From positions 1-36,177 of the forward strand of contig JAGOOZ010000002.1 in assembly GCA_017992215.1 (NCBI GenBank): a DNA stretch of 36,177 nt, written 5' to 3'. The notes beneath the pieces were generated by a model, which was given only the letters and a program-made list of their open reading frames with translations, was not told where the DNA came from and made no database searches. The position numbers and the translations under genes are program-made. How positions within the stretch are numbered: position 1 is the stretch's first letter; each line of letters begins with the position of its first letter. Origin of the DNA: Minisyncoccota bacterium. Lineage in GTDB: Bacteria > Patescibacteriota > Minisyncoccia > Phycocordibacterales > UBA9973. Shown here piece by piece: positions 1-36,177 of this stretch.

Positions 1-411
1 ACCACCCACACAAACAGAGATGCATCATATCTTATCTATAATACAACCACAACAAATGGCCCTCGTCTTAGTGTCTACTCAATGGCAAAAAACACAACAC
101 TCGACCTTGGGGTGTATGGACTTCCTGAAAAATGTGTCTGGAGTAACACACAAACAACGATTGTATATTGTGCACTTCCTGCTCTTTTCGTAGGAACAGC
201 ATATCCTGATTCATGGTACCAAGGGAAAACATCTTTTGATGATCGTTTTGTAAAAATAAACGCCGAAACAGGAATCGTAACACAAATAACAGAAGGTCAG
301 CATGTTGAACAAATAGACGCAATCGCACTCTCTCTCGATAAAACAGAAGACGCTCTTTTCTTCACAAACAAAAAAGACTCCACGCTTTGGAGTCTCTCTC
401 TTACACAGTAG
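1..411 (+). CDS. hypothetical protein, C-terminal fragment (frame open from window start)
   Basis: Frame 1 has no stop from base 1 to the TAG at 409-411. The listed ORF 82..411 is only an internal Met. No family motif recognised. Confidence 0.45.
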   Translation, partial: TTHTNRDASYLIYNTTTTNGPRLSVYSMAKNTTLDLGVYGLPEKCVWSNTQTTIVYCALPALFVGTAYPDSWYQGKTSFDDRFVKINAETGIVTQITEGQHVEQIDAIALSLDKTEDALFFTNKKDSTLWSLSLTQ

Positions 412-874
412 GGGAACCCTCACTACCAATATATCTGATTACCACATGACGATCAGACCCAACACCCTCTGATTCTGTTTGTAGGTCATTTTGATCCTGA
501 AGAAACATGTGGACAATACGTCGCTCAAAAGCTGACATTGGATCAATAGAAATACTACTTTTAAAATATCGAGCTCGTTCTGCCATCATGTGAGCCGTTG
601 CCCGCAATGCATCAAATTGCTTTTTTTGATATCCATTAATATCTACAAAAATACGAGTGGACTCTTCTTCGTTTATTGTTTTTTCTGCCATTTTTCGCAC
701 AAGGTGATTAAGAGAACGGAGTGTCTCTCCATCTCGACCAATTAAATATCGAGAATCTGGTGTTTCAACAGAAAACCAAACCATAGGACCATCTTCTACA
801 CATTCACACGAAGAAAGGGTGCTGTTTGTGTATAAAAATATATCTTCAATTATTTTCTTAACAGCATCTTTCAT
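401..874 (-). CDS. jag: Jag/KhpB-type RNA-binding protein (KH plus R3H domains)
   Basis: 157 aa with a KH-like segment (YLIGRDGETLRSLNHLV) and a C-terminal R3H-like segment (FERRIVHMFLQ). It lies directly downstream of yidC, as in the conserved rnpA-yidC-jag cluster. Confidence 0.85.
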   Translation of the reverse strand: MKDAVKKIIEDIFLYTNSTLSSCECVEDGPMVWFSVETPDSRYLIGRDGETLRSLNHLVRKMAEKTINEEESTRIFVDINGYQKKQFDALRATAHMMAERARYFKSSISIDPMSAFERRIVHMFLQDQNDLQTESEGVGSDRHVVIRYIGSEGSPTV

Positions 875-877
875 ATA

Positions 878-1609
878 TTAATTATTTGAAACAAGAGATT
901 TTCGAACATACCACTCTTGTACAATCGTAAAGACATTACTTACCACCCAATAGAGAGCAACCGCCGCAGAGATTTGATAGGCAATAAACGCAACAAAGAC
1001 AGGAAGTACGTAGCGAATATTTAATTGCATACTGTCAGCAAGTTGCTCTTGGAATGTTTTTGGTTCATCAACAACAGCAACAACCTCAATCTTCTTCTTT
1101 GTAGGGTGAGAAAGGTATCCTTGTATAAACTGTGAAATACCCGCAAGGAGAGCCAGGACAATACTTTTACCATGAAGGTCCACGAGTCCCAGGAATTGTG
1201 TACTAAGCACCTCTGGAGCGTGTATAAACGAATAAAGAGGTGTTGTATCAAAAGAAAGACCTCGATAAAAAACATAATACAATGCAAAAATAACCGGAAG
1301 CTGAAGAAGAACAATAAGACAGCCTGAAAATGGATTTACATTGTTTTTCTTATACAACTCAAGTGTTTTTTGGGCTTGCTGTTCCTTGGAAGGGTAATCT
1401 TTTTTGATTTGCTTTAATTCTCCCTCGAGTCGCTTCATTAAAACCTGACTTCGAATTGATTTTCTGGTCAGAGGAGCGAGAAAAATCTTAATAAGAATAG
1501 TGAGAACAATAATAGCAAAACCAACATCCCCGAACGTAACCGTGTTTATAATAAAAATAAGAGCATTATAAATAGGCTCATAAAAAATAGTGTTCCATAG
1601 TGTTGACAT
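878..1609 (-). CDS. yidC: membrane protein insertase YidC (short form)
   Basis: 243 aa polytopic membrane protein with synteny rpmH-rnpA-yidD-yidC. YidC/Oxa1-like core (PLTRKS..Q..MK..QP....IKKKY, NP..GCLP.L.Q.P pattern). Confidence 0.9.
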   Translation of the reverse strand: MSTLWNTIFYEPIYNALIFIINTVTFGDVGFAIIVLTILIKIFLAPLTRKSIRSQVLMKRLEGELKQIKKDYPSKEQQAQKTLELYKKNNVNPFSGCLIVLLQLPVIFALYYVFYRGLSFDTTPLYSFIHAPEVLSTQFLGLVDLHGKSIVLALLAGISQFIQGYLSHPTKKKIEVVAVVDEPKTFQEQLADSMQLNIRYVLPVFVAFIAYQISAAVALYWVVSNVFTIVQEWYVRKSLVSNN

Positions 1610-1669
1610 TGGTCTATTGTAGCCTAAAAAATAACTTCTTCAAAGTTTATCCTTAAAAATAAGGCTTTT

Positions 1670-1876
1670 TTACTGAAGTGGATCAAAATGATTCTTCTGC
1701 CATGGATGGCACCTTGCAATTCTATAGAGACCCTTTAAAAAACCCCTTAAAAAACCATACTTTACCATTGCTTCTTTTGTGTATTCTGAGCATGTCGGAA
1801 CAAACATACATGAATAATGTGAGTTCAGTGGTAGTTTTTGATAGAAATTAATACAAAAAATTGCTATTTTAACCAT
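1670..1876 (-). CDS. yidD: membrane protein insertion efficiency factor YidD
   Basis: 68 aa with the PTCSEY and RCHPW motifs typical of YidD. It lies between rnpA and yidC. Confidence 0.9.
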   Translation of the reverse strand: MVKIAIFCINFYQKLPLNSHYSCMFVPTCSEYTKEAMVKYGFLRGFLKGLYRIARCHPWQKNHFDPLQ

Positions 1877-1879
1877 GTT

Positions 1880-2197
1880 TTATAAACGTATTTTAGAAAT
1901 AAGCATACCTAAATCATGCCGTATTTCTTCTGAAGAAGCGTTAATTCCTTCTTTTTTATAAAAAAACAGGAGTGTTGCAGGGGGGAGTGTGAGTGTGCGA
2001 ATAGCATTATATCCTTTTCTCCTAAGGGAATTTCGTTTAACTGCCCGTTTTGCAAGGCTTTTTGGAACAACCATAGCACAAAGAGATTCTACCGAGGGGG
2101 TATAACGCAACAAAAAAAGCGGACTAGAGAGTATCTTTCCGTTTTTCAACACAGAGAGAAATAACTCTTTTGTAACACGCTTTTTTTTAGAAATCAT
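1880..2197 (-). CDS. rnpA: ribonuclease P protein component
   Basis: Basic protein immediately downstream of rpmH. I prefer the ATG at 2195-2197 (MISKKKRV...). The track start at 2210-2212 is a TTG that would overlap the rpmH stop. Confidence 0.85.
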   Translation of the reverse strand: MISKKKRVTKELFLSVLKNGKILSSPLFLLRYTPSVESLCAMVVPKSLAKRAVKRNSLRRKGYNAIRTLTLPPATLLFFYKKEGINASSEEIRHDLGMLISKIRL

Positions 2198-2201
2198 TGT
2201 G

Positions 2202-2342
2202 TTATTTTGCAATAGAAACCTTTGTTCGGCCCTTTTGACGTCGGCGAGCAGTAACCTTTCTACCCCCAGGAGTCTTTGTACGACTGAGGAAACCGTGAGT
2301 TTTAGCCCTTTTTCGTTTGTTTGGGTTATATGTTTGAGACAT
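2202..2342 (-). CDS. rpmH: 50S ribosomal protein L34
   Basis: Below the ORF-track length cut-off. Hand translation from the minus-strand ATG (2340-2342) to TAA (2202-2204) gives [46 protein letters not shown], the L34 signature. Confidence 0.92.
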
Positions 2343-2396
2343 AAGGAAAATATATACTATAATACTAAATAATGCAATATAATGGGGGTGTTAACA

Positions 2397-2405
2397 CTAT
2401 CCACA
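2397..2405 (+). promoter_or_regulatory. DnaA-box-like 9-mer in the rpmH-dnaA spacer
   Basis: CTATCCACA, one mismatch from TTATCCACA, in the AT-rich 172-bp spacer upstream of dnaA. Confidence 0.4.
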
Positions 2406-2514
2406 GGTTATTAACAGGTTAATCCAGATGTTTGATTATAGGGAGTTTTTAAATCAGAGTATACTGTAGTGTACACATATTATATAGGAGATTATTATCT
2501 AAAATACTATCAGA

Positions 2515-3861
2515 ATGAACACAAAAGAACTTTGGAACAACTGCCTCTCAGAAATCGAAACAGGTATTTCAAAAGCAAACTTTACAACATGGTTTAAAAA
2601 TACCTCTATTGTAAAAGAAGAAGGGGGGACTGTATATATTGGAGTCCCAAATGAATTTGTAAAAGACTGGCTCTATAATAAATTCCATAAAATGATAGTT
2701 AAGACACTTATGGGATATGAAGAAAACATTCGAAGTGTTGAATATATCATTCACAAACACGATCATACTACAAAAAGAAATGATGATATTGTTTCTTCTA
2801 TTCCTCTTAACAAAGAACTTCCACTCAACGACCTCTACACAAACAAAGAAGATAATCTAAATCCTAAATATACCTTCAACTCTTTTGTTGTTGGGCCATT
2901 CAACGAACTCGCATACGCAGTGGCACAAGCAATTATTGCAAATCCAGGACATAACTATAATCCATTTTTTGTATATGGAGGAACAGGACTTGGAAAAACT
3001 CACATGATTCAATCAATAGGGAATACGATCAAACAAAATTATCCCTCAAAAAAGATTTATTATGTAAGTCTTGAGCGTTTTACTATTGATTATGTAAACT
3101 CACTTGCAAACAAAAACCCAAATTCATTCAAAGAAAAATATAGAAAATATGACGTTATTATTATGGATGATATTCAATTCATTTCAGGTAAAGACCGAAC
3201 ACAAGAAGAGCTTTTCCATTTATTTAACACACTCTATGAGTCAAATAAACAAATTATTTTCTCCTCGGATAAACATCCTAATTTTATCCAAGGGTTAGAA
3301 GAGCGTCTTCAGTCTCGTTTTGCGTCTGGTATGACTGTTCAAATAACTGAACCTGATTATGAATCTCGTATTGCTATCATTAAAGCTAAATTTGAATCAA
3401 CAAATTGTATTATTGAACCAGAAATTGTTTCATACCTTGCAGAAACACTTGAAGGAAACATCCGTGAACTTGAGGGGAGTCTCAACACTGTTGTAATGCA
3501 ATCTCAGCTTAAAAATAAATCACTTTCTCTTACAGAAGTAAAAGCACTTATTAAAAACAACATAAAACCTAAGAAAACTGTTGCAATTAAAGATATTGTT
3601 CAAACAATATCTGCATATTACAACATAACAGAAGAAACTATTTACGAAAAAACACGACGAAAAGAAATTGTGAGAGCTCGTCAGGTGATTATGTATATAT
3701 TACGAGAAGATTTTAACATCTCATACCCACTCATTGGACAAAAAATGGGGGGGAGAGACCACACAACAGTTATTCACTCTCATTTAAAGATTAAAGATGA
3801 TTTAAAGACAGACCCTTCATTATTACAAGAAATAGAGAAGATACGGATATTGTTTAAATAG
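2515..3861 (+). CDS. dnaA: chromosomal replication initiator DnaA
   Basis: 448 aa with Walker A (GGTGLGKTH), an AAA+ core, and a C-terminal DNA-binding helix region (GGRDHTTVIHS). Confidence 0.97.
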   Translation: MNTKELWNNCLSEIETGISKANFTTWFKNTSIVKEEGGTVYIGVPNEFVKDWLYNKFHKMIVKTLMGYEENIRSVEYIIHKHDHTTKRNDDIVSSIPLNKELPLNDLYTNKEDNLNPKYTFNSFVVGPFNELAYAVAQAIIANPGHNYNPFFVYGGTGLGKTHMIQSIGNTIKQNYPSKKIYYVSLERFTIDYVNSLANKNPNSFKEKYRKYDVIIMDDIQFISGKDRTQEELFHLFNTLYESNKQIIFSSDKHPNFIQGLEERLQSRFASGMTVQITEPDYESRIAIIKAKFESTNCIIEPEIVSYLAETLEGNIRELEGSLNTVVMQSQLKNKSLSLTEVKALIKNNIKPKKTVAIKDIVQTISAYYNITEETIYEKTRRKEIVRARQVIMYILREDFNISYPLIGQKMGGRDHTTVIHSHLKIKDDLKTDPSLLQEIEKIRILFK

Positions 3862-3862
3862 A

Positions 3863-4031
3863 TATGGATAACCCTGTGGAAAACATATGTATATAAAAAA
3901 TAAAAATGTGTATAAAATATCTTTTTTTAAAAAATATCCACATCATACACAAACAATACCAACCACACGAAATATGTTTTTATAAAAAACCCTTATCTGT
4001 AAAATGTAAAAAAGTAATCCACATATCCACA
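3863..4031. promoter_or_regulatory. candidate oriC: DnaA-box cluster in the dnaA-dnaN spacer
   Basis: Five DnaA-box-like 9-mers in a very AT-rich 216-bp spacer: TATGGATAA 3863-3871, TGTGGAAAA 3875-3883, ATATCCACA 3934-3942, TAATCCACA 4015-4023, ATATCCACA 4023-4031. Confidence 0.6.
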
Positions 4032-4077
4032 GGAATAATAGTAATAATAATTTATTAATAGATAATATACACATACA

Positions 4078-5175
4078 ATGAAACTAGAATGCTCAATTGA
4101 AAAAATAAGAAATGCACTTACTACCGTAGAGAGACTCACAGGTAAGAATCTTACACTTCCTGTATTAGGAAGTGTTCTTTGGGTTGCAACAGGTAAGACA
4201 CTTAAATTAAGAGCTACAAATCTTAGTGTAGGTATAGAAATAGATGTTGATGCAAAAATAGAAAAAGAAGGTGTTGTTGCTATTAAGGGTAATATTCTTC
4301 CTTCTCTTTTTGCTGTATTGTCTGGTGACTCAAAGGTTTCATTTGAACTTATTAATGATAATCTTTCTGTGAAAACAAAAACAAGTACAATACTCTTGAA
4401 GAGTATTTCTCATGAAGATTTTCCAACGATTCCAATTGTTTCAGGTGATCAGTGTGAAATTCCAGTAAAAAAGTTTATTGAAGGTCTCAAGGCTGTGTAT
4501 TATAGTGCTTCTCTTTCAGAGATAAAACCAGAGATAGGAAGTATTTATATTTATCCAGAGGATGATATGTTGGTATTTGTTGCCACAGATTCATTTCGAC
4601 TTGCTGAGAAAAAAATAAAAATTAAACAAAAACTTACATTTACTGGTATTCTTATTCCCCTTAAAAACACCGTTGAATTAATTAAAGTTTTTGATGATAG
4701 TACCGAGGATGTTGTTATTACACTTCAAAAAAATCAGATTTCATTTAAAACAAACACTATTTACTTTACCTCACGTGTTGTTGATGGTAATTTCCCAGAC
4801 TACAAACAAATCATTCCTAAAAAATCAACAACAGAAGCAGTTATTTTGAAACAAGATTTTATTTCATCTTTAAAGATATCAAATATTTTTACAGACAAAT
4901 TAAACCAAGTAACATTTACAATAAATCCTAGCGATAAGATTTTTGAAATAGAATCAAAAAATTCTGATATTGGAGAAAATACAACCTTTGTTTCAGGTTC
5001 ATTTACAGGAGAAGAGGTTGTTGCTCACTTTAATTATAAATATATTCTTGATTGTTTTAATTCAATTAGTGGTGATAGTCTTAAAATAGAATTAAATGGA
5101 AATAATAAACCAATGATTTTGCGAACAGTTGGGGATGTTTCATTTATGTATTTAGTAATGCCTATGAACAGGTAA
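4078..5175 (+). CDS. dnaN: DNA polymerase III beta sliding clamp
   Basis: 365 aa with the three-domain clamp length. Follows dnaA. C-terminal MPMR-type ending (LVMPMNR). Confidence 0.95.
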   Translation: MKLECSIEKIRNALTTVERLTGKNLTLPVLGSVLWVATGKTLKLRATNLSVGIEIDVDAKIEKEGVVAIKGNILPSLFAVLSGDSKVSFELINDNLSVKTKTSTILLKSISHEDFPTIPIVSGDQCEIPVKKFIEGLKAVYYSASLSEIKPEIGSIYIYPEDDMLVFVATDSFRLAEKKIKIKQKLTFTGILIPLKNTVELIKVFDDSTEDVVITLQKNQISFKTNTIYFTSRVVDGNFPDYKQIIPKKSTTEAVILKQDFISSLKISNIFTDKLNQVTFTINPSDKIFEIESKNSDIGENTTFVSGSFTGEEVVAHFNYKYILDCFNSISGDSLKIELNGNNKPMILRTVGDVSFMYLVMPMNR

Positions 5176-18943: not shown

Positions 18944-19432
18944 ATGGATACACACGAAAAGGTAAAAGCAGACTCATCATATGCAATACATATGGTCCTC
19001 TCTCATTCATACACAATGTTTATGCTCGCACTTGTTGCTGGGCTTGTTCTTCATCTTGTGTTTGAAATACCACTTTTTGTATCTGGGGCATATCAGTATC
19101 TCGGGGTGGTGTTGATTATTATAGGGACATATCTTGTCTGGTGGGCTCAATCAACAACAAGAAAAACAAAACAAGAAATGAGCCAAACACAGCCTTCTCG
19201 TGATTTTGCTCGTGGCCCATACAAGTACAGCCGTAATCCTACACACATTGGGCTCACACTCACAACGCTCGGTCTCGGACTTATCTTGAATTCTTTTTTT
19301 ATTTTTGTTGTGACGATTATTGCATCACTTATTTCGAAATATATTTTTATTAAAAAAGAAGAAGCACTTCTTGAGGAAAAATACGGCGATGAGTATCGTG
19401 AATACAAGAAGACAGTGAGTACATGGGTATGA
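18944..19432 (+). CDS. membrane methyltransferase of the isoprenylcysteine carboxyl / phospholipid methyltransferase-like family
   Basis: Polytopic protein. C-terminal region GPYKYSRNPTHIGL...EEALLEEKYGDEYREYKK matches the ICMT/PEMT-type signature. Start moved to the ATG at 18944 (the upstream part overlaps the polA end). Confidence 0.7.
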   Translation: MDTHEKVKADSSYAIHMVLSHSYTMFMLALVAGLVLHLVFEIPLFVSGAYQYLGVVLIIIGTYLVWWAQSTTRKTKQEMSQTQPSRDFARGPYKYSRNPTHIGLTLTTLGLGLILNSFFIFVVTIIASLISKYIFIKKEEALLEEKYGDEYREYKKTVSTWV

Positions 19433-19576
19433 TCCCGTTAGAGACCCTGCCTTTGCCGGCAGGCAGGCGCGGTCGTAGTAAAAAATACAATGGATGTCTT
19501 TAAAACAAAAGTAGAAATTATAAATAAACAAAACAGTGTTGCGTTACGGACCGCGACCTGTCTCTAACGGGATGAT
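19429..19576 (+). mobile_element. MITE-like inverted-repeat element, copy A (138 bp plus ATGAT duplications)
   Basis: Left: CCCGTTAGAGAC 19434-19445, CGCGGTC 19468-19474. Right: GACCGCG 19549-19555, GTCTCTAACGGG 19560-19571. Direct ATGAT at 19429-19433 and 19572-19576. The second copy is at 23107-23234. Confidence 0.6.
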
Positions 19577-20219: not shown

Positions 20220-20236
20220 AAAAGACAAAAAGAAAA

Positions 20237-20281
20237 GGCTCAGGAGTAAACTCTCGAAATTCGAGAACTAACTCCTGAGCC
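20237..20281. terminator. long compound hairpin, strong T-tract only on the minus strand
   Basis: GGCTCAGGAGT (20237-20247) pairs with ACTCCTGAGCC (20271-20281) and encloses the palindrome TCTCGAAATTCGAGA (20252-20266). On the minus strand it is followed by TTTTCTTTTTGTCTTTTTT. Confidence 0.5.
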
Positions 20282-20489
20282 CTTGTCTTAATAAAAGAAC
20301 GAGTGCATCGTATGCAAAGAATAATAATTTTGCTGATGCAAATGAACGAATGATCGTATACATATCTTTCCCGATATATGCCCCTCTATCATTGGGTAAA
20401 TGTTGGAAGTATATGTGTAACGAAGAACACCTTACATACATTTTATACTTCATAGAAAAAGAGTGCAAGGGGAAGTGTGGATAACAGTT

Positions 20490-20507
20490 GTGCCCTCGGT
20501 AGGAATC
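20490..20507 (-). repeat. 18-bp exact duplicate of the tRNA-Lys 3' end
   Basis: GTGCCCTCGGTAGGAATC at 20490-20507 is identical to 20642-20659 (T-loop to discriminator of tRNA-Lys, plus 1 nt). Confidence 0.8.
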
Positions 20508-20521
20508 TTTCATTACATGAA

Positions 20522-20600
20522 CAGTATACCTTTTCAGCTCGCAGGGTGCGAGCAAAGAAAAGCTTTTCGATTCCTACACACAAGCAAAATGATTTGCTTG
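20522..20600 (+). repeat. structured module, copy L (contains a T-arm-matching segment for tRNA-Lys)
   Basis: Blocks are CAGTATACCTTTTC (20522-20535), hairpin GCTCGCA-GGG-TGCGAGC, GAAAAGCTTTTCGATTCCTACACACAAGC (20557-20585), and hairpin CAAGCAAA-ATGA-TTTGCTTG (20581-20600, with 20581-20585 shared with the preceding block). Collinear with 27561-27641 (minus) and 36100-36177 (plus). Confidence 0.5.
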
Positions 20601-20611
20601 TTCGAGTAAAT

Positions 20612-20635
20612 AAAAAACGACCTAAGTCGTTTTTT
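20612..20635. terminator. bidirectional intrinsic terminator downstream of tRNA-Lys
   Basis: AAAAAACGAC, loop CTAA, GTCGTTTTTT. Confidence 0.75.
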
Positions 20636-20642
20636 ATTCGGG

Positions 20643-20715
20643 TGCCCTCGGTAGGAATCGAACCTACGACCATCTCCTTAAAAGGGAGCTGCTCTACCGA
20701 CTGAGCTACGAGGGC
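20643..20715 (-). tRNA. tRNA-Lys (anticodon UUU)
   Basis: Hand-folded 73-nt cloverleaf: GCCCTCG/CGAGGGC acceptor, GCTC/GAGC D-stem, anticodon loop CTTTTAA, T-arm GTAGG-TTCGATT-CCTAC, discriminator A. CCA is not encoded. Confidence 0.9.
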
Positions 20716-20856
20716 ATATAATAAACAAAGCTAATTATCACATATTCAGTTGAAACCGCTACGACTGAACTATAAGGGTATATCTTTATAACGTGTAAAA
20801 AAGATTTTACTTGTGAAAATTCTCTTTTACACGTACACTCAAAAATATCACACTTT

Positions 20857-22532: not shown

Positions 22533-23111
22533 TTATTTTCCTCCTAAAATTTTGAGTGCTTCTTTGATTCGTGCATTTGTTCCTTCGATAGAAGGGGGGA
22601 TTTGCTTGAGTGCATCACGAGCTTCGTTTTGTGAATAGCCGAGAGCTTTGAGGGCTTCGATGATATCACTTTCTTCTCGAAGCACACCTGGTGTGTGGCT
22701 ACCACCAGTATGTGCTTTTAATTTATCACGTAGTTCGAGAACTATTTTATCCGCTGTTTTTCTACCAATACCAGAAACCTTGTTGAGATAGCTTGTGTCA
22801 CCAGTTGCAATCGCTTTTTTGAGTGTATCAATTGAAGCGACAGCGAGAATCGAGAGGGCAGACTTGGGTCCAATACCAGAAACATCAAGGAGGAGTTCGA
22901 AGAATGATAATTCATCTATCGTTGCGAATCCATAGAGGTCGAGAGAGTTTTCGCGGACAGCCGTATATGTCCAAAGTGCGACCGTGTCGCCCATGCCATA
23001 TGCACCCACAGTATCAGTTGTAATAAATACTTTATATCCAACACCATTAACGTCAATAACGAAAAACTTGTCAGTCGTATGAATAATAGTGCCTTCGATT
23101 CGTGCAATCAT
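22533..23111 (-). CDS. ruvA: Holliday junction DNA helicase subunit RuvA
   Basis: MIARIEGTI... N-terminal OB domain, HhH motifs (VSGIGPKSA, VSGIGRKTA), and C-terminal domain III. Confidence 0.93.
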   Translation of the reverse strand: MIARIEGTIIHTTDKFFVIDVNGVGYKVFITTDTVGAYGMGDTVALWTYTAVRENSLDLYGFATIDELSFFELLLDVSGIGPKSALSILAVASIDTLKKAIATGDTSYLNKVSGIGRKTADKIVLELRDKLKAHTGGSHTPGVLREESDIIEALKALGYSQNEARDALKQIPPSIEGTNARIKEALKILGGK

Positions 23112-23234
23112 CCCGTTAGAGACAGGTCGCGGTCCATATGTAAGGAACCGTTTTGCTGTGTTGTGAAAATAAGTAAATAATTAAATGTATACCCGTATTT
23201 AGTAAACCGTGACCGCGGTCTCTAACGGGATCAT
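23107..23234 (-). mobile_element. MITE-like inverted-repeat element, copy B (118 bp plus ATGAT duplications, inverted relative to copy A)
   Basis: Plus strand: CCCGTTAGAGAC 23112-23123, AGGT, CGCGGTCC 23128-23135 ... GACCGCG 23211-23217, GTCTCTAACGGG 23218-23229. ATCAT at 23107-23111 and 23230-23234 (ATGAT on the minus strand). Confidence 0.6.
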
Positions 23235-24307: not shown

Positions 24308-24379
24308 GGTCCCGTCGTTCAATGGATAGGACGTAACTTTGCGGAAGTTATGATGCAGGTTCGATTCCTGCCGGGATCA
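24308..24379 (+). tRNA. tRNA-Arg (anticodon GCG)
   Basis: Hand-folded 72-nt cloverleaf: GGTCCCG/CGGGATC acceptor, GTTC/GGAC D-stem, anticodon stem TAACT/AGTTA with loop TTGCGGA, T-arm GCAGG-TTCGATT-CCTGC, discriminator A. CCA is not encoded. Confidence 0.85.
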
Positions 24380-24444
24380 CAGAGTCGAGTGCTAGTTCGA
24401 GCACTCGACAAGGGTCATCAAATACCTTTGTTATAAAGAACAAC

Positions 24445-24479
24445 AAAAATAGCTAACGAGATAATCGTTAGCTATTTTT
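24445..24479. terminator. bidirectional intrinsic terminator after the recombinase gene
   Basis: AAAAATAGCTAACGA, loop GATAA, TCGTTAGCTATTTTT. Confidence 0.75.
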
Positions 24480-24495
24480 GTTTGAAAAGTTAGTT

Positions 24496-25779
24496 TTACG
24501 CTTTAACTGTTATGATCTTATTTTTCAAAACTAGATCGTTTTTTATACAATCAAGAACCGATCGTTTTTCTAAAATTGTTCCGTCTTTCAAAACGAACTT
24601 CATGTAATTTCTGAGATCAACTTTCTGTATATCAGCTGGGTTGTCCTTTCCTAAAAACATCGCTTGAAGCTTTTTGAATTTCTTGATTTCAAGATTCAGC
24701 TTTTCATTAAGTTGTACTTCATTAAGGTCCAAAGTTCCTGCCATTTTCTGAAATTCTTTTAATAAGTCATCTTCGTTTATTGCAGGATTTGTGCATTTTC
24801 TATCTTTAGATTTAGTACATCTATAATAGACATGTCTATTTACTCCGCCATTTAGTAATTTCTTAAATTTCTCGTCTGCCGTAATACCTGATCCGCACAT
24901 TCCGCACTTCACCATTCGAGTAAACGCAAACTCTTTTCCATGAGTTTTTATAACCTGCGTTTTGATTGCTGATCGGCAATCATCAAAAAGTTCCTTGCTA
25001 ATTATTGGCGTATGCTTTCCGTCGTACCAGTTTCCACTGCCTTGTGGAAACTCAAATCGTCCGTAATAAAAGGTGTTGTTGATTATTTTAAATACATTTC
25101 CAAGACTTAGATAAAACCCTCTATGTGTTTTGAAATTCAGTTCATACCGTAACCATGAGTATACTCTCATTCCGCTCCACCGTTCGTATGCGATTTTCTC
25201 AAAAATCTGTTTAATTACTGGTGCTCGTTCGGGATCAATCTCTACTTCGCATTTCGCTAGTCTCTTGTTTGATTTCCTGTATCCAGTTGGCGGTTGTACT
25301 GGCCATAATCCCATTTCGCACCGTGCTCTCATTCCTCGCTTCACATTGATACTCTTGTTGTCATTCTCTAGTTTTGCTTGAGAGCATAAAATCATCAAGA
25401 GGAATTTATCACTTGGCGAATTAGTAAATGTTTGCCCGAATGTCTTGATTTGAGTTAACTTCTTTTGATCAATACGATCCACCAACTTTCCCAAATCTCC
25501 AGCATTTCTTGAAAGACGATCTGGTGCCCAGGTAATAATTGCGTTGAATATGCCGTCGTCTATGTCTTTTAGTATTTCCTCAAACACGGGTCGTTGACCT
25601 GACTCTTTTGCACTATGAGATTCACGACGGATCTCTACCACATTCAAACCTTCACGCTCTGCTATTTGGCTCATTTCCTTGACCTGGGAATCAATGGAAA
25701 GGGCTTGCTTTTCTTCGTCTTCGGTTGATTTGCGGGCGTATAAGCAATATTTAAGATTATCTTTTATTATTTCTGTCAT
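24496..25779 (-). CDS. large serine recombinase (resolvase/invertase catalytic domain, recombinase domain, zinc ribbon)
   Basis: N-terminus LYARKSTEDEEKQALSIDSQ (catalytic Ser context), DRLSRN motif, a central recombinase domain, and a Cys cluster (CGMCGSG...YYRCTKSKDRKC). Its 3' end lies 116 bp from tRNA-Arg. Confidence 0.9.
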   Translation of the reverse strand: MTEIIKDNLKYCLYARKSTEDEEKQALSIDSQVKEMSQIAEREGLNVVEIRRESHSAKESGQRPVFEEILKDIDDGIFNAIITWAPDRLSRNAGDLGKLVDRIDQKKLTQIKTFGQTFTNSPSDKFLLMILCSQAKLENDNKSINVKRGMRARCEMGLWPVQPPTGYRKSNKRLAKCEVEIDPERAPVIKQIFEKIAYERWSGMRVYSWLRYELNFKTHRGFYLSLGNVFKIINNTFYYGRFEFPQGSGNWYDGKHTPIISKELFDDCRSAIKTQVIKTHGKEFAFTRMVKCGMCGSGITADEKFKKLLNGGVNRHVYYRCTKSKDRKCTNPAINEDDLLKEFQKMAGTLDLNEVQLNEKLNLEIKKFKKLQAMFLGKDNPADIQKVDLRNYMKFVLKDGTILEKRSVLDCIKNDLVLKNKIITVKA

Positions 25780-25897
25780 ACATATATTGATGACAGAGAA
25801 AGATAGTTTTGCTAAGACTATGCAGAACTAGATATACGTCGCATACTCGCAAATAGCTTTTACCTCTTTATTTTAATCTATTTTGTGATATAGTAAC

Positions 25898-26054: not shown

Positions 26055-27347
26055 ATGATTATAAGAACCTATATTAAAGACATTCCTGAATATTCAGGGA
26101 AAGAGGCTACTATCGTAGGCTTTGCTCACACTATTCGTGCGCAGAGTAAAATTGCATTCCTTATCGTTCGCGATGTGACTGGCATCTTACAGACAGTCGT
26201 TACCGCTGAACAGGTCGAGGCTTTTCAAATTGCTAAGGAACTTAGCACAGAATCAGTATTGAAGGTTACAGGTCTCGTGAAAGAGGCAGCGCAGGCACCT
26301 AGTGGTTATGAAATAGAAGTTAGTACAATTGAAGTACTTTCATCTGCCGATGCGCAGCTACCGATACCAATTCTTGAAAAGAAAGGCGGAGAAGAAACTG
26401 AAGCGCCTATACGTTTCGACTATCGTTGGATTGATCTTCGCAAGCCCGATCATCTAAAGATTTTCAAAGTATGGACGGAACTTGAAAAAGGCTTCCGTGA
26501 CTACTGGGATAAAAATGATTTTATTCAAATCTATACACCTTCATTTATGTCAACGCCAAGCGAAACTGGCGCTGAGGTATTTGAAGTAAACTACTTTGAC
26601 CGCAAAGCATATCTTGCACAATCACCGCAATTCTATAAGCAAATGGCTATTGCAAGTGGTTTTGAAAAAGTGTTTATGACAGGCCCCGTATTCCGCGCAG
26701 AGCTTTCATTTACTACTCGACACCTTACCGAATTTACTGGTTGGGATTTTGAAATGGCGTACATTGAATCTCATCAAGACATCATTGTTGCCGAGGAAAA
26801 CATGATTGTTTCCGGATTTACTAGATTAAAGGAAAAGTTCCCAGAGCTTCGTCTAGAAATCCCTAGTATGCCTTTTCCGCAGATCACTATGGTTGAAGCA
26901 AAAAGGATACTTGCAGAGCGTGGCGTGGCAAGCGGAGAAGAACACGATCTCTCTCCAGAAGAAGAACGGGCTATCAGTGAATATGTGCGAGAAAAACACA
27001 ACCACGACTTCGTATTCATTACTGAATACCATGTATCAAAAAGTGCCTTTTACCATATGCGCAACGAGGAGGGTCGTGGCAAGCGCGCAGACCTTTTGTT
27101 TAAAGGAATCGAAGTAACAACACTCGCTCAACGCGAACATCGCATTGAGATTCTTGAAAAACAAGCAAAGGAAAAAGGGATGTCATTTGAAGAACTGAAA
27201 GATTATCTCAACTTTTTCCGCTGGGGATGCCCTCCACATGGAGGTGCAGGTATTGGCCCTGGACGATTCATTATGAAAATCCTCGACCTGCCAAACGTTC
27301 GCGAGGCGACTTATCTTCCAAGAGATGTTAAGCGATTAAATCCATAA
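26055..27347 (+). CDS. aspS: aspartyl-tRNA synthetase, archaeal/eukaryotic-type (class IIb, about 430 aa)
   Basis: N-terminal OB anticodon-binding domain, AYLAQSPQFYKQ, motif 2 FRAE..T.RHL.EF, QREHR, and C-terminus GCPPHGGAGIGPGRFIMKILDLPNVREATYLPRDVKRLNP, which matches the archaeal-type AspRS ending (FPRD..RL.P). Confidence 0.92.
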   Translation: MIIRTYIKDIPEYSGKEATIVGFAHTIRAQSKIAFLIVRDVTGILQTVVTAEQVEAFQIAKELSTESVLKVTGLVKEAAQAPSGYEIEVSTIEVLSSADAQLPIPILEKKGGEETEAPIRFDYRWIDLRKPDHLKIFKVWTELEKGFRDYWDKNDFIQIYTPSFMSTPSETGAEVFEVNYFDRKAYLAQSPQFYKQMAIASGFEKVFMTGPVFRAELSFTTRHLTEFTGWDFEMAYIESHQDIIVAEENMIVSGFTRLKEKFPELRLEIPSMPFPQITMVEAKRILAERGVASGEEHDLSPEEERAISEYVREKHNHDFVFITEYHVSKSAFYHMRNEEGRGKRADLLFKGIEVTTLAQREHRIEILEKQAKEKGMSFEELKDYLNFFRWGCPPHGGAGIGPGRFIMKILDLPNVREATYLPRDVKRLNP

Positions 27348-27442: not shown

Positions 27443-27512
27443 GAAAATGCATGAAAAAGCCTTGTGGAGTAAGGAACCCCACGGTCGCACCACGACTAGG
27501 CTCACCCGTTAG

Positions 27513-27548
27513 AAAAAGAGCTGTCTTTGATAGACAGCCTTTTTCTTT
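27513..27548. terminator. bidirectional terminator-like hairpin inside the structured region
   Basis: AAAAAGA-GCTGTCT, loop TTGAT, AGACAGC-CTTTTTCTTT. Confidence 0.6.
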
Positions 27549-27752
27549 GGGTGATCCCGAAGAAGACATCTGCATGTCTTCTGTGCAGGAATCGAAAACC
27601 TTTTCCGTGTGAGTGTACTCACGAACGGAAAAGGTGTACTGATCCTGTGATTGAGTACAATCACCTACTGGGTAAGGGTCGATATGCGTACTCGCGGTCC
27701 TACCGTTGGTGTTGTTTTGATTACAAAACCACCAATCACGCGCCGTTGGCGA

Positions 27753-27769
27753 GATTACCCTGCCGGGAT
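27753..27769 (+). repeat. imperfect direct copy of the tRNA-Arg 3' end
   Basis: GATTACCCTGCCGGGAT compared with tRNA-Arg GATTCCTGCCGGGAT (24364-24378). There is an 11-nt exact core CCTGCCGGGAT plus GATT with a 2-nt insertion. Confidence 0.45.
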
Positions 27770-34106: not shown

Positions 34107-34154
34107 AGCATTTTTGGGGGAGGGGGGTCTGAGTATCTTTTTCGAATCTCACTG
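34107..34154 (+). repeat. truncated copy of the structured-module 5' part; left direct repeat of the 1.9-kb islet
   Basis: GAGTATCTTTTTCGAATCTCACTGATTCTGTACA (34121-34154) matches 36073-36106 at 28 of 34 positions. The upstream GGAGGGGGGTCT resembles GGAGGCGGTGAGACCGC at 36056-36072. Confidence 0.6.
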
Positions 34155-34245
34155 ATTCTGTACATAAATACCATACTCATTTATGTACTCGCCTGAGGCC
34201 TCTTTTATTGGAAATAGAACACCTTGTGGGTAAATTGTAGGAGTC

Positions 34246-35829: not shown

Positions 35830-36055
35830 AAATTATGGATGTTGATTAGGAATAATAATATGTTTCTTTGCTTATATAGTACCTATAACCTATAATATCC
35901 TTTGCTCTAGTGAAATTTGGAGTTCCTGTTGCTATTACCTCAACAACTTCATTTTTATCATTCAATAGATGAACTGTAGAGGTGGTTTCATAGTCGCTTT
36001 ACCCCTTGAACTACACTCTCGCAAATTATAATCGCGAAAACGCTCATTAATTTGC

Positions 36056-36177
36056 GGAGGCGGTGAGACCGCGAGTACGCGTTTCGAATCTTACAGATTC
36101 TGTACACCTTTCGTATTTCTTCGAATGATTACATTCTCATAAATATACTCAAGGTTTTCGAATCTCACACAGAAAGC
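36056..36177 (+). repeat. structured module, copy W (runs off the window end)
   Basis: CGGTGAGACCGCGAGTACGC (36061-36080) resembles the minus strand of 27685-27704. CTGTACACCTTTCG is at 36100-36113. AAGGTTTTCGAATCTCACACAGAA at 36151-36174 is collinear with copies L and M. Confidence 0.5.

Follow-up and report, generated by a model that had tools for sequence, protein, structure and literature searches.

The tRNA-Lys locus

We analyzed a 36,177-nucleotide stretch of DNA from a Minisyncoccota bacterium (NCBI GenBank assembly GCA_017992215.1, contig JAGOOZ010000002.1, positions 1 to 36,177; hereafter the window), focusing on a short module without genes, copy L, that adjoins the 3' end of a tRNA-Lys gene. 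Related copies were compared in 8-kb genome loci, which carry L-numbers, and all family comparisons below are restricted to these loci and the window.

The tRNA-Lys(UUU) gene lies on the minus strand (20640-20716; called at 20640/20643-20716 by ARAGORN and Rfam, 73.9 bits) and does not encode CCA. The 18-mer GTGCCCTCGGTAGGAATC is found on the plus strand at 20490-20507 and again at 20642-20659, the only two sites in the window at up to three mismatches. Given the ARAGORN and Rfam placement, the second copy is therefore the tRNA 3' end, comprising the discriminator, the acceptor 3' strand, the T-stem 3' strand and 4 nt of the T-loop. The original prediction for this stretch was that the exact duplication goes beyond chance; none of 100 dinucleotide-preserving shuffles of the window reproduced the match, and a chance origin of the pair was rejected. 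The 134 bp separating the two copies contain no gene.

Read along the plus strand, copy L starts with the first repeat (20490-20507), a boundary copy that is antisense to the tRNA-Lys 3' half, with the acceptor 3' strand and discriminator at 20490-20498, the T-stem 3' strand at 20499-20503 and the T-loop sequence AATC at 20504-20507. A small hairpin follows, hp2 (20508-20522), whose TTCAT/ATGAA stem and conserved TTACA loop were identified by the fold and by a covariance model match. In the fold this is succeeded by the conserved junction AGTATACC, then by helix P1 (CTTTTC/GAAAAG), which surrounds an inner hairpin of variable sequence (GCTCGCA/TGCGAGC), and then CTT (20523-20565). Next comes TTCGATTCCTAC (20566-20577), made up of the tRNA-Lys T-loop TTCGATT and the T-stem 3' strand CCTAC. 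It is identical to minus-strand positions 20651-20662 of the tRNA, so that this internal copy is inverted relative to the tRNA, as had been claimed, and in the fold it pairs with 20499-20507. Beyond it the fold places a linker AC, the hairpin hp3 (ACAAGCAAA atga TTTGCTTGT, 20580-20601) and a T (together 20578-20602). The module ends with CGAG (20603-20606), a remnant of an internal copy of the acceptor 3' strand that most family members carry in full, for example as CGAGGGCAC in L037.

A terminator had been predicted between the two repeats, and an A-run/hairpin/T-run palindrome at 20609-20638 is terminator-like and reads identically in both directions. It was not called by a simple terminator scan because its stem has only three G-C pairs. 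This palindrome is the center of a larger one made by the internal copy and the tRNA end, a layout that recurs in family members. CCA is encoded by neither of the two tRNA genes in the window nor by most tRNAs of the loci, and the typical tRNA 3' context is the discriminator, a C and then the A-run that opens the terminator palindrome.

The copy L region folds at -53 kcal/mol (z = -7.1 against shuffles), closed by pairing of 20495-20507 with 20569-20577 and 20603-20606. It had been proposed that the minus-strand RNA folds with a stem of GTAGGAATC and GATTCCTAC around the module. This stem does close the module, but it can form on either strand, and the near absence of G-U pairs described below disfavors the RNA level.

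A module family in Patescibacteria

The context of TTCGATTCCTAC, which had been described as conserved, is indeed not confined to 20490-20715 but recurs at 27578-27605 on the opposite strand (28 nt, 89% complementary). The window holds three family copies, scored by the family covariance model at 96.6 bits (copy R), 84.5 bits (copy L) and 32.6 bits (the third copy). We scanned the pattern ACCTTTTC N15-30 GAAAAGNTTTTCRA over one genome per species and chose true modules among the matches with a filter for an upstream AGTAY; all family counts are lower bounds. The scan gave at least 55 distinct true modules, and its other raw matches look like chance occurrences in coding DNA. With the covariance model we obtained at least 91 matches at E <= 0.01 in 59 loci, and at least 78 at E < 1e-6 in 59 sources (58 8-kb loci and the window). 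True-module loci with titles come mostly from metagenome-assembled genomes (MAGs) of Patescibacteria (Paceibacteria, Nomurabacteria, Parcubacteria, Saccharibacteria), and the rest are labelled "uncultured bacterium" or "bacterium".

All family members share one plan. An antisense tRNA 3' half and a conserved hairpin core come first, followed by the T-loop and T-stem strand in sense orientation, a 9-bp hairpin of variable sequence, the acceptor strand, a terminator that is palindromic and, last, the tRNA. AGTA.ACCTTTTC and GAAAAG.TTTTC.A are invariant in the family alignment, but the search pattern itself demanded these letters; as the seed fixed TTTTCRA and the P1 arms (and AGTAY), conservation of those bases is partly imposed. 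A long variant has one more hairpin (CCGCGAGTACGC), which interrupts the antisense T-loop, and its hp2 has a left arm (ATCGAACC) that also consists of antisense T-loop sequence. Modules form tandem arrays in L058, L075 and L103, where the repeat unit is the core closed by the T-stem (for example GCAGGA ... TTCGATTCCTGC AC GCAGGA ... in L058), and the L075 array mixes three core subtypes. Many short-read contigs stop within the tRNA or the module, which is typical of repeats.

We did not recover the family among known RNAs or viruses. Rfam at gathering score returned only the two tRNAs of the window, and at E <= 10 over copies L and R it gave weak, chance-level matches (best E = 0.062), all far below gathering scores. 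We thus rejected membership in a known RNA family, including tmRNA, YrlA and T-large. In the viral contigs of IMG/VR, a first core pattern gave only chance matches in coding regions and a second none, and a phage or viral origin was rejected with these two patterns. A search of the full-text literature found no description of such elements.

Module arms match the neighboring tRNA

Of the 62 pattern matches, 39 have a convergent tRNA gene downstream (module on the top strand, tRNA on the bottom strand), usually at a distance of 50-110 nt. The 12 bases following GAAAAGNTT are exactly the T-loop and T-stem strand of that tRNA in 21 cases, and most other internal 12-mers differ from the neighboring tRNA by one or two bases. 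The idea that the module would also be found behind other tRNAs was borne out for at least 12 tRNA types (Val, Tyr, Ser, Leu, Arg, Lys, Glu, Gln, Gly, Ile, Asn and Trp). In most clear cases, the inner edge of the boundary copy coincides with the border of T-stem and T-loop, 14-16 nt from the end of the tRNA. Its outer edge is variable, from 0 to 22 nt past the tRNA, and the direct repeats are 14-25 bp or more. Core identity was 0.79 between different tRNA types, versus 0.84 at the same type in other genomes, and both main core subtypes were found at the same tRNA species. We considered whether hp3 or the inner hairpin of P1 are copies of other tRNA parts and rejected this, as the longest common words were no longer than with shuffled partners. 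In one Paceibacterota MAG (L035, 6777-6850), the tRNA adjoining the module was given the anticodon UUA by ARAGORN and labelled "Stop".

The inner copy, the terminator and the tRNA end together make one long palindrome, as in L037 (CGAGGGCAC aaaatcaaaagcaccc gtac gggtgcttttgatttt GTGCCCTCG). The tRNA 3' half is present in three copies (direct, inverted, direct) that form two nested palindromes, with hp2 and the terminator as the junction hairpins. Triplication in this order with a hairpin at each junction is shared with tandem inversion duplications, which the Roth laboratory reportedly described in Salmonella as arising by snap-back at quasi-palindromes. The module could accordingly be a local product of replication or repair, made by snap-back at the T-arm and terminator hairpins, and gene conversion would have spread its core. 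The arms are invariably copied from local sequence, the outer edges vary, the stems are Watson-Crick and the T-loop core TTCGAA is palindromic, and for the arms a template switch is the best model that we have. It fails on the shared core. Tandem inversion duplications are private events, whereas about 85 nt of non-tRNA core (P1, AGTAY and the hp2 loop), together with an hp3 whose position is fixed, show homology between loci, between genomes and between classes, and this core is common to all 59 sources. Independent local accidents are therefore insufficient and a transfer step would still be needed, making this explanation decidedly unlikely.

Covariation of the hairpins

Over 48 aligned copies, the three helices were 92.9% paired, compared with 70.2% in shuffles and at most 52.5% when partners were slid. 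We counted 240 double-sided changes in these helices where 64 were expected, confirming that they covary. For hp3, 99.3% of cells were paired and compensatory changes affected all nine pairs; for hp2 they affected four of five pairs across the family. The closure by the T-stem is kept nearly always. The acceptor-type outer stem is perfect in several copies (13-bp closures). In about 40% it is decayed, and its mismatches are of the G-U type as often as of the A-C type. In copies L and R the outer stems equal the acceptor and T-stem duplex of the tRNA, meaning that the inverted half-sites fold into a duplex copy of the target.

Across 78 copies, the module hairpins contain 1633 Watson-Crick, 10 G-U and 23 A-C pairs, whereas 53 tRNAs of these loci have 589, 33 and 5 in their acceptor and T stems. 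The share of G-U, 5.2% in the tRNA stems, is about 0.6% for the module strand and 1.4% for its complement. In a functional RNA, G-U would be tolerated far above A-C; this was the case in the tRNA stems (33 to 5) but not in the modules (10 to 23). An excess of G-U like that of tRNAs is expected of RNA from either strand and is missing here, and we therefore infer that the hairpins are kept as DNA palindromes rather than as RNA.

The strongest case against a DNA-level role is that the module could be a gene, or part of a 3' untranslated region, for a structured noncoding RNA that copies the minihelix or elbow of the neighboring tRNA and serves as a decoy, sensor or substrate of tRNA-binding enzymes, with mobility being secondary. 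Both window copies fold very stably (z = -7.1 for L and -8.4 for R), the helices covary, and the junctions (TTACA, AGTAY and the T-loop) look conserved across classes, though the pattern demanded AGTAY and TTTTCRA. A terminator follows the module on the same strand, and copy R and the copy in L111 begin right past the stop codon of a co-oriented gene, so that they would be transcribed. The tRNA-sense strand has a tRNA-like topology with a true tRNA 3' end. In this it resembles tRNA-like RNAs (the tmRNA domain, YrlA, viral tRNA-like structures, minihelices), which likewise set an acceptor-type stem on a T-stem with T-loop sequence. Unlike those RNAs, however, the module matches no Rfam family, lacks their G-U usage, often has a decayed acceptor stem and carries large insertions between T-stem and T-loop. 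No conserved promoter was seen in the loci inspected, the mismatches of the decayed outer stem show no preference for G-U, and the module is present or absent among close relatives. With the G-U shares above, these observations make the RNA explanation unlikely.

Presence and absence among relatives

Comparison of the tRNA-Lys locus between relatives revealed sites with and without the module. An identical module is present in the same-species contigs L136, L138 and L140. In L230 and L233, which have a SpoU 98% identical to that of the window and flanks matching the window at about 100% identity, the model found no module. These two loci differ from the window between GTGTGGATAAC and GTAAAAAAGATTTT, where they hold a short remnant, GGTAGGA TTGCGAGTGTCTT TAC CGAGGGCAC, and a palindromic terminator. 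The inner acceptor copy of this remnant matches the tRNA-Lys of the window and not their own tRNA-Lys, which has another acceptor stem (GCGCCCG/CGGGCGC in L230 versus UGCCCUC/GAGGGCA in the window) and a shorter 5' flank (that of the window, 20717-20795, is 77 bases longer). The whole tRNA locus thus behaves as an exchangeable allele. In L142, from a related species whose SpoU is 74% identical, the tRNA is followed only by a plain terminator, which abuts the next gene, and L145 carries another core subtype without hp3. Two further related species have no module; in both, the orthologous tRNA-Lys is adjoined at its 3' end by a tyrosine-integrase gene (L146, 1231-2130; L148, 241-1137), and no direct repeats of the tRNA end were found for these elements in the flanks present. 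Taken together, these comparisons and those of the cores show gain, loss, exchange and frequent change of target, but not a clean insertion event.

The original prediction recognized an attL...attR layout at this locus and allowed for either a miniature derivative or a scar. Our results agree with the layout of a gene-less insertion that regenerates the tRNA. They depart from classical att elements in the core shared behind at least 12 tRNA types and in the matching inverted copy; to our knowledge, classical attL/attR elements have neither. We next weighed whether the module is the scar of a classical integrase island or prophage in tRNA-Lys, reduced by interior deletion to attL, attR and a piece of an attP arm. 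An 18-bp direct repeat of the tRNA end beside an intact tRNA is consistent with such a scar, tyrosine-integrase elements use this same tRNA-Lys in L146 and L148, and a serine-recombinase unit occupies the end of tRNA-Arg in the window. However, the same 100-nt core recurs in tandem arrays and at 12 or more tRNA types, nearly as alike between tRNA types as within them, and an inner inverted copy of a tRNA half is foreign to known attP arms. No family member encloses a recombinase or a kilobase insert within its core among the loci found, and none was found in viral contigs, so the idea of an autonomous parent in the form of a module with a kilobase insert was dropped. The serine-recombinase unit, moreover, meets its tRNA at the very last bases and not at the T-loop. 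We consider a scar very unlikely. At least 78 copies, tandem arrays and the want of a larger parent speak against a one-off event, and the module-less loci L230, L233 and L142 agree better with the other half of the prediction, a miniature non-autonomous element.

A proposed mobile element and its difficulties

Our preferred explanation, to which we assign a probability of roughly 0.5, is that copy L is a gene-less member, about 150 bp in length, of a multicopy family of hairpin DNA in Patescibacteria that is non-autonomous, resides at tRNA 3' ends and would be mobilized in trans by a candidate enzyme. The element would act as DNA, with folded single strands or extruded hairpins rebuilding a duplex copy of the tRNA gene end. 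Insertion may occur at the conserved T-loop sequence (core TTCGAA, itself palindromic) through a candidate activity provided in trans, be it a recombinase, a transposase or a template switch during replication. The element would bring a replacement 3' half and terminator for the tRNA, and the old 3' half would stay behind as the direct repeat. The inner inverted copy would let a single strand fold into a duplex tRNA-gene end, by analogy with CTX-phi/dif and integron attC. Spread from strain to strain could then proceed together with the tRNA gene by homologous recombination, and a two-way terminator for the tRNA and the convergent gene may be a by-product.

Several points weigh against this explanation. 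No recombinase, transposase or reverse transcriptase was tied to the family in the 8-kb loci or the window, and no autonomous parent with the same ends was found in the loci or in viral contigs. The near-identical strain without a module reflects a swap of a whole segment (module, tRNA and tRNA 5' flank), not a clean insertion or excision. Site-specific integration, target-primed copying and template switching each need an extra step for the arms to match a new tRNA without inactivating it; an integration model accounts for the core and the arrays and fails on retargeting. The unpaired core is conserved across distant classes, which would also fit a functional or protein-binding RNA, and the family sample is biased by the exact search pattern.

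A more speculative version of the trans-mobilized element, which we think quite unlikely, is that the target is found by nucleic-acid complementarity and not through recognition by a protein. The arms, as single-stranded DNA or RNA, would fold into a copy of the tRNA 3' end, an enzyme acting in trans and conserved in Patescibacteria would recombine this copy with the gene at the universal T-loop, and the arms would be re-templated at each target, making the module a naturally reprogrammable gene-less homing element. Re-templating of the arms from each target would account for the ease with which at least 12 tRNA types have been reached.

If the preferred explanation is true, tRNA genes in the reduced genomes of Patescibacteria are routinely trailed by a small selfish or co-opted DNA module that rebuilds the tRNA end, copies it both ways and may supply two-way terminators in very compact genomes. 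An abundant repeat family is missing from Rfam, one that breaks metagenome assemblies at tRNA loci and can mislead the annotation of tRNA ends and att sites. The family also provides a test case in which one core is kept while the target-matching arms change, the same question that is posed by programmable recombination.

Comparison with known systems

The module shares several properties with integrative elements that target tRNA genes at the T-loop and with their non-autonomous derivatives, the cis-mobilizable elements such as the CIMEs of Streptococcus, which are bounded by att sites. These are a direct repeat of the tRNA 3' end starting from the T-loop, a tRNA restored by element sequence, presence or absence between relatives, tandem accretion and a mini form without a recombinase. 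Sublocation classes of integration in tRNA genes were reportedly defined by Williams in 2002. In contrast to the tRNA-targeting integrative elements, the module is 100-250 bp long rather than kilobases, uses a single core at 12 or more tRNA types, repeats the tRNA half once more in inverted orientation, contains no gene between its repeats and has no parent or integrase that we could find.

The attP(+) site of CTX-phi mimics dif when folded, and the integron attC is a recombination site in the form of a folded single strand. As in these sites, two close inverted copies resembling the target fold into a duplex target, structure is kept while sequence varies, hairpins are Watson-Crick only and units occur in arrays. 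The target of the module, however, is a tRNA gene end rather than dif or attI, there is no cargo, and a link to XerCD or IntI and single-stranded DNA intermediates are hypothetical for the module.

Repetitive extragenic palindromic (REP) sequences and REPINs are short palindromic units in inverted pairs that are mobilized by RAYT and have a GTAG or CGTC head. Like these, the Rickettsia palindromic elements and miniature inverted-repeat transposable elements (MITEs), the module is short, gene-less, hairpin-forming, multicopy and mostly found at gene 3' ends; its arms change in a correlated manner, and it may serve as a terminator or RNA stabilizer. Unlike REPs, REPINs and MITEs, its arms copy the adjacent tRNA instead of a fixed family sequence, its position is tied to the T-loop border and no transposase, of the RAYT type or another, was linked to it in the 8-kb loci (for REPIN biology, see PMC8049555; for REP super-families, PMC3733652). 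Considered as a MITE, the module has inverted tRNA-half copies bounding a core, at least 78 copies and no open reading frame (ORF), but its arms vary with the tRNA, the outer edges of its direct repeats vary and no parent transposon was found among the loci.

Like the bridge RNA (seekRNA) of IS110, the module is structured and noncoding, and its variable segments correspond to the insertion target, a sign that nucleic acid may determine specificity. Unlike the bridge RNA, it has no DEDD/Tnp nearby, and its two target-matching segments cover the same bases and pair together, whereas those of the bridge RNA sit in open loops. An IS110-type system at this locus was rejected. Pfam scans of the window ORFs found no DEDD/Tnp recombinase; the neighboring ORFs encode a large serine recombinase and a class II synthetase, and the rest are housekeeping genes around dnaA. 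Nearest in kind to the module are the non-autonomous tRNA-targeting elements, the hairpin repeats of REPIN/MITE type and the folded-strand recombination sites. With no recombinase or parent found, no fixed terminal repeats and no Rfam membership, however, the module appears to fall outside every named family.

Copy R, copy 3 and the serine-recombinase unit

Copy R lies on the minus strand at 27554-27769. Its boundary, ATCCCGGCAGG (27769-27759), is an antisense tRNA-Arg end, and its interior consists of a second unit type with two hairpins and then a long-type core with a 26-nt insertion in hp2. The inner copy, comprising TTCGATTCCTGC (27596-27585), hp3 (27582-27561) and CGGGATCAC (27559-27551), is the 3' end of tRNA-Arg(GCG) split by a hairpin. 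A terminator-like palindrome follows at 27511-27548. The tRNA-Arg(GCG) gene whose 3' half these arms carry lies on the plus strand at 24308-24380, with about 3.1 kb of other DNA between it and copy R. We initially took a GGTAGGA in copy R as a sign of a Lys-derived chimera and dropped the idea, since a single C-to-T change from GGCAGGA explains it equally well. The second unit type (TAATCTCGCC..GGCGCG.. GGTGGTTTTG taat CAAAACAACACC) is nested 5' in copy R (27709-27758, minus strand) and is kept at the syntenic site in L111 (5535-5590), there with its own T-loop/T-stem copy and hp3.

Copy 3 (36054-36177, plus strand) is of the long type with a variant P1 and is interrupted by the end of the window. 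Its boundary GCGGAGGCGGTGAGA and internal copy TTCGAATCTCAC are both of tRNA-Ser type, corresponding to tRNA-Ser 3' ends found in L020, L027 and L101, and the model match covers 36084-36177 (32.6 bits, E = 3e-5). Just upstream, on the minus strand at 35985-36035, is a sequence like a tRNA 5' half (GCGAGAG TG TAGTTCAAGGGGTAAAGC...) that ARAGORN did not call. A degenerate fragment of a long-type module (GAGTATCTTTTTCGAATCTCACTGATTCTGTACA) lies at 34120-34200, with 82% identity to the start of copy 3.

Between tRNA-Arg and copy R, Pfam identified a 427-amino-acid large serine recombinase (24496-25779, minus strand) and, between the recombinase unit and copy R, a class II aminoacyl-tRNA synthetase of the Asp/Asn type (26055-27347). 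The syntenic locus L111 has two unrelated ORFs in place of the synthetase, so that this housekeeping-type gene sits in a variable slot. The recombinase forms a compact unit of about 1.5 kb (window 24381-25850) that encodes nothing else and adjoins the last bases of tRNA-Arg. L150 encodes a recombinase 98% identical to it, whose 3' flank is the same as far as CACTCGACTCT and there abuts a tRNA-Glu, with no module within 6 kb, and the DNA common to the two units is window 24381-25850 only. A 57% homolog adjoins tRNA-Asp in L152, and very many homologs at >=75% identity exist in Paceibacteria and Nomurabacteria.

Recombinase homologs are also found near modules, adjacent to one in L038 and in L111 and L064, and in L111 the recombinase ORF continues into the antisense tRNA-Arg. 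This arrangement raises the question of whether the module and the tRNA-end palindrome are the attachment or landing site of the recombinase. The gene lies between module and tRNA in both the window and L111, its family is abundant in Paceibacteria, and a GCGAGTATGC motif upstream of it resembles the module hairpin GCGAGTACGC. Even so, the nearly identical unit at tRNA-Glu does without a module, the shared DNA stops at the last tRNA bases, and co-occurrence is expected if both merely target tRNA 3' ends. We find the landing-site explanation highly improbable and, on the same grounds, rejected this recombinase as the enzyme of the module. The unit is a compact element in its own right that is joined to tRNA genes at their very last bases, and it probably split copy R from tRNA-Arg. 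The tRNA 3' ends would then be crowded integration sites for at least three kinds of element: the module, the compact serine-recombinase unit and the tyrosine-integrase elements.

Other features of the window

The window belongs to a cellular Patescibacteria chromosome and not to a phage, as it includes the origin region and its other genes are housekeeping genes. The neighborhood of the chromosomal origin spans 401-5175, where jag/KH-R3H, yidC and rnpA are encoded by the minus strand and dnaA and dnaN by the plus strand. Directly after a 227-amino-acid ORF, a long hairpin at 20234-20284 has 25-nt arms that are 84% complementary and is kept in L230 and L233. A separate repeat family, ATCCCGTTAGAGAC ... 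CGCGGTC, is present in both orientations at 19431-19475, 19545-19576, 23107-23138 and 23208-23232, with one pair complementary at 97% over 32 nt. These repeats flank a 3.5-kb segment holding tRNA-Lys, SpoU, Fpg and RuvA, and related CGACCTGT motifs adjoin the integrase genes in L146 and L148.

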